44,396 nucleotides of DNA from the IMG/VR virus record IMGVR_UViG_3300028422_000701; one strand, 5' to 3'. Numbering within the stretch: position 1 is the first letter of the stretch; every line of letters starts with the position of its first letter. The stretch comes from a virus (taxonomy: Duplodnaviria; Heunggongvirae; Uroviricota; Caudoviricetes). Positions 29,785-31,262 of the stretch are shown piece after piece. The notes below the pieces were generated by a model, which was not told the origin of the DNA, ran no database searches, and was given only the letters and a program-made list of their open reading frames with translations. The position numbers and the translations under genes are program-made.

Positions 29785-30219
29785 ATGGTAAAAACAGTTA
29801 AAGGTACTAAAATTAGTACAAAAAAGGTTGGTAATAAACCAACAGTTAATAAGGTGGTTAGTAACCCAGTAGTTACATTAACACCTGTTACAACAGTAAC
29901 AACAGTTACACCAAATGTAACAGTAACACCACAAACGGTAGGGGTAAAGGTAGTAAATGTTAAACCACAAATTGTATATGTAAAAAGGTTATTACATAAT
30001 TACTTAAAACAAAACGGGTTAAACCATACAAACAGTACAACAACAAAACCACAAGTAATAAGTAATATAACACCACAACAAGTACAACAAGTACAAACAC
30101 AACTTAATACATACTTACAAGGTATTAATACAATTTATAACTATACTACTACACCACAAACATTATACATACAAAACCACTTTATAACACACAGTAATAA
30201 ATATTTAGGGTTAAAATAA
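29785..30219 (+). CDS. basic protein lacking Asp/Glu/Ala; paralogue of 30879-31262
   Basis: shares VKPQI.YVKR...NYL, STTTKP, Y.YTT..Q..YI.NH..TH..KY; AGGTAGGT RBS. Confidence 0.85.
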   Translation: MVKTVKGTKISTKKVGNKPTVNKVVSNPVVTLTPVTTVTTVTPNVTVTPQTVGVKVVNVKPQIVYVKRLLHNYLKQNGLNHTNSTTTKPQVISNITPQQVQQVQTQLNTYLQGINTIYNYTTTPQTLYIQNHFITHSNKYLGLK

Positions 30220-30303
30220 CCCTACTTGTTACATAGGGTATAACCAAAAAAGGTTGTACCCCTTGTAATGGGTAATACCATTATAAAAAGGTAGGTGTAA
30301 AAC

Positions 30304-30453
30304 ATGGGTACTAAAAAGTACGGGGTTAAAACATGGGTTAAAACAACCGTTATTGTACTAGTTATGGGGGTAATTAGTGGGTGGTTATGTGTAGGGTTAG
30401 ACAACTTATACCAAAACCGTATAAACCAAATACAACAACAAAATAACAACTAG
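30304..30453 (+). CDS. 49-aa membrane peptide
   Basis: AGGTAGGT RBS; MGTKKYGVKTWVKTTVIVLVMGVISGWLCVGLDNLYQNRINQIQQQNNN. Confidence 0.6.
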   Translation: MGTKKYGVKTWVKTTVIVLVMGVISGWLCVGLDNLYQNRINQIQQQNNN

Positions 30454-30470
30454 TAAAGGGTAGGTAAACA

Positions 30471-30542
30471 ATGTTAAAACTAAGTAAAATAATTAAGTGG
30501 GGATTTACTCCACCAAAAAGAAAAAGAAGAAAAGGAAGATGA
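30471..30542 (+). CDS. 23-aa basic peptide crossing the edge of the GA-free zone
   Basis: GGGTAGGT RBS; MLKLSKIIKWGFTPPKRKRRKGR. Confidence 0.35.
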   Translation: MLKLSKIIKWGFTPPKRKRRKGR

Positions 30543-30635
30543 AAGTCTTCATTTTTTTCATCTTTTGTATCAAAAAGGAAGTCCTTCGTCCCAAATGACA
30601 AGTGACGTTTTCAATATCGACGTTGACAGGTCTGG

Positions 30636-30677
30636 GTTTCCAGTTTCAGGTGTGCGGTTTCAGGTTTCCAGTTTCAG
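30636..30677. repeat. 7-bp-period array of GTTTC(C/A)(A/G)
   Basis: units at 30636, 30643, 30657, 30664, 30671; degenerate unit at 30650. Confidence 0.8.
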
Positions 30678-30786
30678 GCTTGATAACAATATTCAAAATG
30701 GATAAAATTCACTTTTTATTTGCAGTTTCAGTTGTAAGTTCAAATCAGAAAATATTATTAAATTGTTGAAAAGTTACAAAAAAGTG

Positions 30787-30815
30787 TTTACTTTCCGATT
30801 ATTCTGTAGTATAAT
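30787..30815 (+). promoter_or_regulatory. promoter of the normally coded paralogue
   Basis: TTTACT-17-TATAAT. Confidence 0.6.
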
Positions 30816-30878
30816 ATAAGTAGTTAAACAAAAAAGGGTTTAACAAATCTTTGAAAATATGGAAAGGTAGGAAAGAAT

Positions 30879-31262
30879 ATGGAAAAAGATGTTAAAGTAG
30901 TACCAGTGAAAGTGAAAGAGGTTATTAGTGGTGAAACTAAAGAAACTAAGGTAGTTAAGACACCAAAGGAGAAAGTAGTTACTAACGTATTGACAGTTAA
31001 GGTTAATGATGTTAAACCACAAATCATGTATGTAAAACGTATCATTAATAATTACTTAGTAAAGGCAGGTATCAATAGTACTACAAGTACTAGTACAAAA
31101 CCTGAAAGTATTAAGTTAAGTGAAGCACAATTAAAAGAAACTAATAAGTTATTAGGTGAATGTAAAAACCTAATTAAAAGTAAATACGATTACACTACTG
31201 ATGAACAAATGGCTTATATCACTAACCACTTACAAACACATTTCACTAAGTACATAAAATAA
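30879..31262 (+). CDS. hypothetical protein; normally coded paralogue of 29785-30219
   Basis: shared motifs as above; AGGTAGGA RBS; own terminator. Confidence 0.85.
   Translation: MEKDVKVVPVKVKEVISGETKETKVVKTPKEKVVTNVLTVKVNDVKPQIMYVKRIINNYLVKAGINSTTSTSTKPESIKLSEAQLKETNKLLGECKNLIKSKYDYTTDEQMAYITNHLQTHFTKYIK

Follow-up and report, generated by a model that had tools for sequence, protein, structure and literature searches.

A GA/TC/GC-free gene island with a recoded paralogue in a tailed phage encoding DpdA and 7-deazaguanine pathway genes

The window analysed here (44,396 nucleotides) covers the final 44 kb of the 108,396-bp genome of a tailed phage (G000), and contains an island of about 1 kb from which the dinucleotides GA, TC and GC have been almost entirely eliminated. 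The island encodes a small protein (copy 1) which is recoded at the amino acid level under this ban, and a normally coded paralogue (copy 2) lies a short distance downstream. Zones of the same kind, with intact recoded members of the same family, are conserved in relatives and are under selection, and the genome carries DpdA together with genes of the 7-deazaguanine modification pathway. As judged from the sequence, the island may be kept free of the motif of the phage's own DpdA, which would make its early genes independent of the modification state; a probability of approximately 0.5 is assigned to this reading.

The island and its paralogous genes

Approximately 89 occurrences of GA, TC and GC are expected between 29463 and 30500, as the neighbouring early genes contain approximately 86 of them per kb, but only two are seen, both GA (29708 and 30400). 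The three words are jointly absent from 29463–29708 and from 29709–30400 (692 bp), the latter being the longest GA/TC-free gap in the genome, where approximately 118 bp is expected. TC is missing from 29346 to 30509 and GC from 29463 to 30654. This is the only GA/TC/GC-free stretch in the entire genome, and its edges are sharp, with TC-rich DNA directly outside.

The ban concerns reverse-complementary words (GA and TC, with GC being self-complementary) and affects non-coding DNA equally, thus being a property of the double-stranded DNA and not of the mRNA. The –35 elements in the island are TTGTAT or TTGTAC in place of TTGACA, the ribosome-binding sites are GGTAGG in place of GGAGG, the stop codons are TAA or TAG, and the protein alphabet is reduced to 17 amino acids (Asp, Glu and Ala absent), with Ser encoded by AGT only. 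The –35 element of copy 1 contains no GA, the sole GA of the island core (29708) sits in its leader hairpin, and the GA at 30400 encodes the single Asp of a 49-aa ORF, which is the second gene of the island (Table 1).

An earlier note on this DNA had taken the two longer ORFs for paralogues, which BLASTP confirms (E 8e-24), with 43% identity across 100 aa. The compositions it reported are confirmed by residue and codon counts: Asp, Glu and Ala are missing from copy 1 (D0 E0 A0), which uses only AGT for Ser and lacks GA, TC and GC throughout its ORF, while copy 2, which starts 660 bp downstream of copy 1, has 14 acidic residues and three Ala (D4 E10 A3), with 19 GA, 5 TC and 3 GC. The note had also ascribed to each copy its own promoter, a related leader hairpin, an AGGTAGG ribosome-binding site and a downstream hairpin, and the first three of these hold. 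A promoter/leader block of 41 nt (29683–29723 and 30806–30846; 78% identity) is common to both copies, the hairpin GUUAAAC...GUUUAAC forms in both leaders, and the GGTAGG site occurs in 3 of the 183 surveyed ORFs (copies 1 and 2 and one other; the 49-aa ORF, which also has GGTAGG, is outside this list), in comparison with 90 of the 183 for the GGAG type. Downstream of copy 2 there is a clear intrinsic terminator. The downstream hairpin of copy 1, in contrast, is weak and has no U-run, and copy 1 is therefore probably co-transcribed with the following 49-aa ORF.

Table 1. Features of the island, the two gene copies and their surroundings (positions in the window)
Feature	Position	Strand	Remarks
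AT-rich imperfect palindrome	29408..29522	.	Upstream island edge
Island without GA, TC, GC	29463..30500	.	2 GA, 0 TC, 0 GC
Sigma-70-like promoter match in island	29544..29573	+	TGTACA, 18 nt, TATAAT
Copy 1 promoter	29664..29692	+	TTGTAT, 17 nt, TATACT with TG before it; read from sequence
Copy 1 leader hairpin	29700..29747	+	GUUAAACAG...CUGUUUAAC; -16.6 kcal/mol, z -2.3
Copy 1 ribosome-binding site	29767..29776	+	AAAGGTAGGT; no GA
Copy 1, recoded paralogue, 144 aa	29785..30219	+	No D/E/A, pI 10.3
Second island gene, 49-aa ORF	30304..30453	+	Hydrophobic middle segment; GGTAGG ribosome-binding site; stop TAG
Iteron-like array between copies	30637..30735	.	Four TTTCCAGTTTCAGG-like units, three at 14-bp spacing
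Copy 2 promoter	30787..30815	+	TTTACT, 17 nt, TATAAT
Copy 2 leader hairpin	30823..30844	+	GUUAAAC...GUUUAAC; related to copy 1 hairpin
Copy 2 ribosome-binding site	30863..30872	+	AAAGGTAGGA; unusual type shared with copy 1
Copy 2, normally coded paralogue, 127 aa	30879..31262	+	14 D+E, 3 A, pI 9.5
Copy 2 intrinsic terminator	31261..31284	+	Fold z -3.9
Third paralogue, distant, normally coded, 98 aa	42704..43000	+	C-terminal YIKNHL..H..KYL motif in common

AlphaFold predicts for both copies a disordered basic tail followed by three helices with a confident core; copy 1 is a small basic protein whose tail is rich in Lys, Val and Thr. Searches of Pfam, PHROGs and NCBIfam with the island proteins and the family gave no match, the best hit of a profile search against the PDB (ribosomal protein S10, E 0.008) is not credible, and the ESM Atlas contains no informative match for the family. 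By structure, Foldseek against the PDB returned no fold match (E above 1), and a wide VIA-align comparison gave Z of 6.5 or less, which is typical of generic helical bundles. No recognisable anti-restriction or take-over protein is thus found in the island by Pfam, PHROG, NCBIfam, PDB sequence or fold, nor do these searches give any family or fold match for the anti-defence or DNA-entry role that the earlier note had proposed.

Recoded zones in related phages

A complete 102-kb syntenic relative (G001; approximately 45% protein identity to G000) has one GA/TC-free run of 1,270 bp which contains the recoded member, its normal counterpart being 2.2 kb distant. The same arrangement is found in L008–L015, L017, L029, L105, L106 and L109; 14 zones are present across the relatives, often with a normal copy nearby. 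All phages carry the recoded family in the zone, and conservation extends to its promoters, ribosome-binding sites and hairpins, the terminator stems in the relatives' zones being composed of G-runs and C-runs. Further small gene families are recoded in L017, L097 and L109.

This arrangement, found again in distant relatives, looks new. Neither blastn with positions 29000–33000 of the window nor tblastn with copy 2 gives a match among 50,697 GenBank phages, IMG/VR pattern searches with copy 2 and with the sub-alignment of normal-type copies found no relatives, and an IMG/VR search with the terminase returned just two short high-GC contigs, which are unrelated. Rfam has no match over 28500–34500, and a tRNA search over the whole window found none.

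The ban which the earlier note proposed for all three words is strict for GA/TC but looser for GC: twelve zones, 11.5 kb in total, contain 4 GA and 2 TC (6 together) in comparison with 23 GC, and GC is depleted rather than banned in most of them. The leftover GCs include GGC, and avoidance of GGC only is rejected, as the zones retain some of it. The expectation that the copy without Asp, Glu and Ala always lies within a GA-free zone is borne out in 11 of 11 fully recoded homologues.

All 45 Ser codons in eight recoded homologues are AGT, and columns with Asp, Glu or Ala are occupied by Gln, Asn or His in the recoded copies, never by Lys; Glu is replaced by Gln or Asn, and the transition product Lys is never seen. 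Frameshifted relatives of the recoded gene, which the earlier note had named as contrary evidence, are not found, the ORF being intact in every recoded copy. Across genomes, identity among recoded copies (43–57%) is about equal to that among normal copies (38–63%). The intact ORFs, the missing Lys swaps, the equal conservation and the same confident core fold point to selection, not hypermutation, as the origin of the recoding, and the intact frames, equal conservation and shared three-helix model support the suggestion that fold and function are kept under the dinucleotide ban. In a tree of the family (19 members), recoded and normal copies split on one weak branch (70/92; 72% of bootstrap trees), a split which could stem from shared composition and would fit one origin or several.

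The island might also be what survives avoidance of, or prolonged exposure to, another factor acting at dinucleotide scale, such as a TC/GC-preferring DNA cytosine deaminase or an ADP-ribosylating enzyme of the DarT type (TNTC). The ban is equivalent to no C after T or G on either strand, and the expected products, AA/TT and AC/GT, are common in the zones. Such a factor is nevertheless very improbable, as the zones give way abruptly to TC-rich DNA, the genome yielded no enzyme of this kind, and protection of 1 kb would leave the replication of the other 107 kb exposed, while deaminase hypermutation as the sole cause is rejected because Glu-to-Lys exchange is never seen. The extreme composition and the metagenomic origin of the assemblies might also suggest that the region is without function, having arisen either in assembly or by hypermutation and decay of a duplicate, which can practically be dismissed: all ORFs are intact and equally constrained, regulatory signals are retained, there is no mutational signature, the structural models are confident, and the same architecture recurs in independent assemblies from ENA, JGI, NCBI and Logan.

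The zones may instead be a cis-acting DNA element (replication origin, packaging start or nucleoprotein platform), where approximately 1 kb of duplex, unmodified or of special composition, would be what matters and the genes would be tolerant passengers. The AT-rich palindrome lies at the island edge, the islands of all phages inspected for this have iteron-like arrays at their flanks (the window, L014, G001 and L017), the second zone of L014 contains an internal TTTTTTATAAC array with 11-bp phasing, and numerous contigs of relatives break at differing positions in or near the zones. This explanation is rather improbable, since the zone of each phage contains the same gene family, which is maintained by purifying selection and has a promoter and ribosome-binding site of its own, the recoding in L109 is graded cassette by cassette, and the iterons are outside the zones and rich in GA/TC, as is the array between copies 1 and 2. 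The contig breaks, which are not at one position, do not support a physical end of the genome fixed at the island; the G000 assembly runs straight through the island and has an exact 144-bp repeat at its contig terminus, 14 kb from the island, and the G001 contig terminus is 3 kb from the island of that phage.

The modification genes and the excluded words

The G000 genome encodes DpdA (30175–31044 of the genome, minus strand; phrog_887, E 1.9e-27), which shares 65% identity across 290 aa with DpdA of G001 (300 aa in length) and 39.5% with the annotated enzyme of Flasso. The gene has an apparent frameshift in the assembly approximately 20 codons in; a group I intron, considered as a GIY-YIG gene lies just upstream, was rejected, as no intron model matched and the frame continues. 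FolE (PF01227, E 2e-57), QueD (PF01242, E 3.5e-32) and a QueC-like protein (PF06508, E 1e-10, plus phrog_1550) are also encoded, with a weak radical-SAM match as a possible QueE (E 3.7e-4), and G001 likewise encodes DpdA plus FolE, QueD, QueE and QueC. DpdA is thus present in both complete island-bearing genomes (2/2), a co-occurrence which rests on these two genomes only. A gene for anaerobic ribonucleotide reductase suggests that the host is low in GC and lives anaerobically. DpdA of CAjan modifies G in GA plus GGC (PMC7544227), while that of iggy is strictly GA-specific (PMC10484667). The earlier suggestion that modification is involved gains real context from the DpdA/preQ0 genes and these published GA targets, and the link between DpdA and the island is circumstantial.

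If the DpdA motif of the phage itself is kept out of the island, the excluded words would be the recognition motif or motifs of that enzyme, namely GA and, secondly, GC/GGC, and the island would escape chemical modification while the rest of the genome is modified. The two-base grain of the ban fits a DpdA-type enzyme, as restriction enzymes recognise longer sites. The same word rule excludes approximately 70% of known restriction sites, and one promoter-equipped early cassette could be expressed whether or not the modification is in place or tolerated: it would need no modification shield, and would also be free of bulky major-groove groups and of targets for modification-dependent nucleases. 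Of the two isoforms, copy 1 would lack the motif, with copy 2 as its ordinary counterpart. The island, its recoding, conservation and selection and the modification genes are shown here, whereas GA targeting by this DpdA, the unmodified state of the island, and when and why such a stretch would be useful are inferred.

No such island is found in six DpdA phages (Flasso, G003, G007, G009, G012 and JenK1, the last from the 9g-like genus Nonagvirus within Queuovirinae), and the island is therefore not a general consequence of DpdA. The family profile has no match in ten IMG/VR DpdA records (G003–G012), and tblastn with copy 2 found nothing in a phage collection containing Flasso and JenK1. Queuovirinae are treated as 7-deazaguanine phages (Maffei et al., PMC8594841; PMC12137116), and GrwAB is a nuclease attacking 7-deazaguanine DNA (PMC12137116).

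Ordinary site avoidance is also present in these phages. GATC occurs twice in G001 where 202 are expected (O/E 0.01) and has an O/E of 0.0 in Flasso, GGCC occurs twice in G000 where 39 are expected (O/E 0.05), and CATG is also among the avoided sites. The scarcity of GATC and GGCC counts against the DpdA reading, because modification of GA/GGC should shield such sites; the residual GC (GGC included) in most zones and the apparent dpdA frameshift count against it as well.

The avoidance of these sites agrees with a restriction-avoidance leader unrelated to DpdA, in which the first-entering DNA would be purged of as many sites as it can be and the early proteins would be made while the remaining genome is still unexposed, as does the lack of islands in DpdA phages outside the clade. 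Leading regions have a precedent in some podophages (Autographiviridae), which escape type I restriction with the motif absent from the first-injected region alone (PMC12455610). Strong promoters of the host type and small early genes are found in the island, and a GA/TC ban removes 310 of 617 known recognition sequences (50%), the most among ten strand-symmetric dinucleotide classes, and 439 of 617 (71%) when GC is added. We know of no restriction enzyme, however, that reads a two-base word, avoidance of specific sites needs no loss of Asp, Glu and Ala, and GTAC, ACGT, CTAG and CATG still occur inside the island. As G000 also assembles through the island and the relatives' contigs end at differing places, a leader of this kind is considered unlikely.

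Beyond the avoidance of the DpdA motif, it is conceivable, though held tentatively, that the clade of 7-deazaguanine phages keeps an unmodifiable 'blank' segment as a starter cassette which is independent of modification and invisible to defence. Such a segment would hold duplicates of several small early genes, recoded in the restricted DNA vocabulary and the alphabet of 17 amino acids, and might, for example, be the only part of the genome usable by host RNA polymerase or phage DNA-binding proteins when the incoming DNA is fully modified. The same pressure, acting more mildly, would then be seen in the rarity of TC on sense strands (GA on template strands) throughout the genome, and modification would have a transcriptional cost which shapes coding across the whole genome.

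Were the island a negative of the phage's modification motif, such a motif would be readable from sequence alone, as the words which a modified phage avoids in one place, and hypermodification would have a local cost, in transcription, protein recognition or modification-dependent restriction, which phages pay to avoid. The gene pairs would also constitute a natural protein-design experiment, with several small proteins retaining their fold and remaining under selection without Asp, Glu and Ala beside normal paralogues. Should DpdA not be the cause, a dinucleotide ban that is absolute and conserved across phages of approximately 45% protein identity still points to an undescribed recognition process with a two-base grain.

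Comparison with known systems

The words banned in the island (GA/TC and GC) match the published targets of the CAjan and iggy enzymes at dinucleotide grain, and G000 also encodes DpdA, FolE, QueD, a QueC-like protein and a possible QueE; islands are seen in the G000 clade, whereas none has been reported for those phages.

The family itself resembles the small, abundant, basic early phage proteins typified by A2 of T5 and TF1 of SPO1, as its members are approximately 100–140 aa in length with a pI of 9.5–10.3, have a strong promoter of their own and occur as several diverged copies per genome, but the searches revealed no similarity to any known family in sequence or structure. That either copy binds DNA is a guess.

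Genome-wide avoidance of restriction sites, as in the GATC-free phages of Bacillus and Staphylococcus, is present in G000 (GGCC) and in G001 and Flasso (GATC). This form of avoidance is synonymous and never removes amino acids, whereas the island is local and absolute. Avoidance confined to the leading region is known from Autographiviridae, and the leading end of T7 and the first-step-transfer DNA of T5 are further examples of leading DNA. The island is similar to these in the local absence of words within a promoter-rich region of small early genes, but differs in that whole dinucleotides are banned instead of sites of 4–8 bp, and in its 17-letter protein alphabet, its rewritten signals and the normal paralogue kept alongside.

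A recoded paralogue in an island without GA, TC and GC

Copy 1 (144 aa) and copy 2 (127 aa) are paralogues with 43% identity over 100 aa (E 8e-24), which bears out the alignment seen in the earlier note as well as its description of one copy as free of Asp, Glu and Ala and of GA, TC and GC; copy 2 contains 14 acidic residues and three Ala. A ban on these dinucleotides leaves 17 encodable amino acids, and this accounts for the make-up of copy 1. The island around it (window 29463-30500) holds two GA, TC or GC against about 89 expected from the density in the early genes nearby (about 86 per kb). 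In G000, the whole 108,396-bp genome, GA/TC-free gaps reach at most 692 bp (about 118 expected), the run around copy 1 is the sole one of its kind, and no other strand-symmetric dinucleotide class has an outlier gap anywhere in this genome. A third family copy (98 aa, pI 9.7) is distant, normally coded and preceded by a GGAGG ribosome-binding site.

The window corresponds to bases 64001-108396 of the 108,396-bp IMG/VR virus record, whose two ends have in common an exact 144-bp repeat. Its minus strand carries a siphovirus-type structural module (capsid, portal, terminase), followed by a run of small plus-strand early genes and then by the region of copies 1 and 2. Beyond the window, G000 encodes RecA, DnaB, primase, a family-A DNA polymerase, clamp and clamp loader, an anaerobic ribonucleotide reductase, two RNA ligases, a CCA-adding enzyme and 25 tRNAs. 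The tRNA cluster covers most amino acids, has the highest GC content of G000 and includes tRNA-Ser(GCU), the reader of AGT, to which Ser coding in the island is confined.

AlphaFold2 models both copies as a disordered basic tail with three helices (core pLDDT above 90), the two models not being independent because their alignments overlap. The proteins match no family in Pfam, PHROG or NCBIfam, and nothing in the PDB rises above the helical-bundle background, whether compared by sequence or by fold. Family members are basic (pI 9.5-10.3), and have their own strong promoter, each genome having two to four diverged copies; nucleic-acid binding is at most a reasonable guess.

Coordinates of features in the window, G000 and relatives
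Feature	Sequence	Position
Copy 1, recoded	window	29785-30219
Copy 2, normally coded	window	30879-31262
Third family copy	window	42704-43000 (+)
GA/TC/GC-free stretch around copy 1	window	29463-29708, 29709-30400
TC-free run	window	29346-30509
GC-free run	window	29463-30654
Repeated boxes upstream of island	window	29141-29330
Third promoter/leader motif	window	33043-33072
Short ORF with AGGTAGG	window	33825-33983
Iteron-like arrays	window	30637-30735, 32078-32094
Iteron-like arrays	L014	3775-3867, 5236-5394
Iteron-like arrays	L023 (G001)	1596-1720, 2891-3079
Iteron-like arrays	L017	12902-13000, 13813-13909, 14469-14589
11-bp-phased array	L014	4363-4470
Other recoded families	L017	10674-13696
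Other recoded families	L097	273-515, 5407-5649
Other recoded families	L109	745-4480
tRNA cluster, outside window	G000	48100-54200
dpdA, outside window	G000	30175-31110
dpdA	L005	12172-13110 (minus)

Recurrence and selection in relatives

Searching 1.84 billion proteins with a profile yields 14 further small homologues, several without Asp, Glu and Ala. All 11 fully recoded homologues on fetched contigs (L008, L009, L010, L011, L012, L014, L015, L017 and G002, later L105 and L106) are located in GA/TC-free zones of 0.4-2 kb, the association that the earlier note had asked about. L013, the twelfth, is recoded only in part (three Asp/Glu) and lies in a 302-bp zone. Where contigs are long enough (L014, L017, L109 and G001), a normally coded paralogue is found a few kb away. 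G001, a complete 102-kb relative syntenic with G000 at a protein identity of only about 45%, contains a single outlier run, which spans 1,270 bp free of GA and TC and includes the recoded copy; the normal copy lies 2.2 kb off on the opposite strand. Twelve of the zones, totalling 11.5 kb, retain 4 GA, 2 TC and 23 GC, so GA and TC are essentially forbidden and GC is strongly depleted, being wholly absent in some zones only, that of the window among them. Two other families of small early genes, with products of about 125-135 aa and 80-90 aa, likewise occur as normal and recoded pairs in L017, L097 and L109, the L109 cassettes being graded from fully through partly recoded to normal. No earlier description of such an island was found in the literature searched.

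Many independent metagenomic contigs (L009, L010, L011, L012, L015, L017, L029, which is G002, L097 and the start of the G001 contig) end within a zone or a few hundred bases away, at differing positions, which could reflect nearby genome ends, assembly-breaking repeats or a coverage effect.

Every recoded ORF is intact, and identity between phages is comparable for recoded (43-57%) and normal copies (38-63%). Asp, Glu and Ala of the normal copies become Gln, Asn or His and never Lys, the expected product of G-to-A hypermutation. These features uphold the selection on an intact recoded protein proposed in the earlier note, whereas the 'pioneer' role that it gave to copy 1 is one that we only infer. 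The family tree is compatible with single or multiple origins of recoding.

Regulatory signals and flanking repeats

The dinucleotide ban shapes regulatory signals as well as coding: the -35 element of copy 1 is TTGTAT, stop codons in the island are TAA or TAG, and terminator stems in relatives consist of G-runs and C-runs. The related leader hairpins and ribosome-binding site claimed for both copies are recovered, with 78% identity over 41 nt of promoter and leader, related hairpins predicted by folding, and GGTAGG at 3 of 183 surveyed ORFs (GGAG-type at 90). A 49-aa zone ORF outside that survey also has GGTAGG ahead of it. The promoter/leader motif ATGATATACACAGTTAAAAAGAAAAGGG and a short ORF with the rare AGGTAGG site also occur outside any zone. 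Just upstream of the island, GGGAGCC/GGAAGCC-TTATAGG boxes recur, each with an A or T run behind it, and GGAC(A/T)TTATATACCTCA is present there twice; GGAAGCCCG is the lone GA/GC exception within the zones of L014 and L029.

The zones may alternatively represent a cis-acting element, as iteron arrays and AT-rich repeats flank them in all phages. The iteron-like short direct repeats occupy GA/TC-rich spacers beside zones and between small-gene cassettes and differ in sequence per phage; a phased TTTTTTATAAC array lies inside a zone of L014.

The DpdA pathway and possible benefits of the island

G000 encodes DpdA (DNA-guanine transglycosylase), FolE, QueD, a QueC-like enzyme and a weak radical-SAM match, and G001 also encodes DpdA. 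CAjan DpdA inserts 7-deazaguanine at G in GA and GGC (PMC7544227), and that of iggy acts strictly in GA context (PMC10484667). The set of banned words is its own reverse complement, so the constraint acts on duplex DNA, and the two-base grain fits a DpdA-type enzyme but not any restriction enzyme. Read most simply, the island would be DNA beyond the reach of the phage's own modification system, the DpdA link being circumstantial. Against this link, six further DpdA phages, among them Flasso and JenK1 of the Queuovirinae, lack the island, the family profile matches none of ten IMG/VR DpdA records, and tblastn of copy 2 against the GenBank phage collection returns nothing. GATC in G001 and GGCC in G000 are almost completely avoided, though GA/GGC modification should protect both sites. 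A restriction-proof leader unrelated to DpdA, and pressure from another factor of dinucleotide grain are further rival explanations.

Observed and expected counts are 2 and 39 for GGCC in G000 (CATG O/E 0.38), 2 and 202 for GATC in G001 (CATG O/E 0.13), and 0 and 304 for GATC in Flasso (GCGC O/E 0.07). Sense-strand TC is scarce across G000, window included (O/E 0.44; replication module 0.29, small early genes 0.36-0.49, structural genes 0.52), so GA is rare on template strands; AGY Ser codons number 1019 against 591 TCN, and ATC makes up 3% of Ile codons. The scarcity is milder in G001 (0.68), and the O/E in five other DpdA phages is 0.78-1.07. About 20 codons past a plausible ATG, dpdA shows an apparent frame change (...IYFAG, then VQCPEADEY... 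in another frame), which is due to an error of assembly or is a true frameshift. Immediately upstream of dpdA is a gene for a free-standing GIY-YIG/NUMOD1 homing endonuclease, and dpdA has no intron model match.

The interpretation in the earlier note is partly supported, and placing the island beyond the phage's own modification gives it a specific molecular hypothesis that can be tested. Of the ten strand-symmetric dinucleotide classes, GA/TC is the one whose ban excludes the most known restriction sites (50%, rising to 71% with GC), so the island would need no chemical shielding against those sites. GrwAB is a nuclease attacking 7-deazaguanine DNA (PMC12137116), and some phages evade restriction through leading regions free of the motif (PMC12455610); escape from either kind of attack is a plausible benefit of the island.
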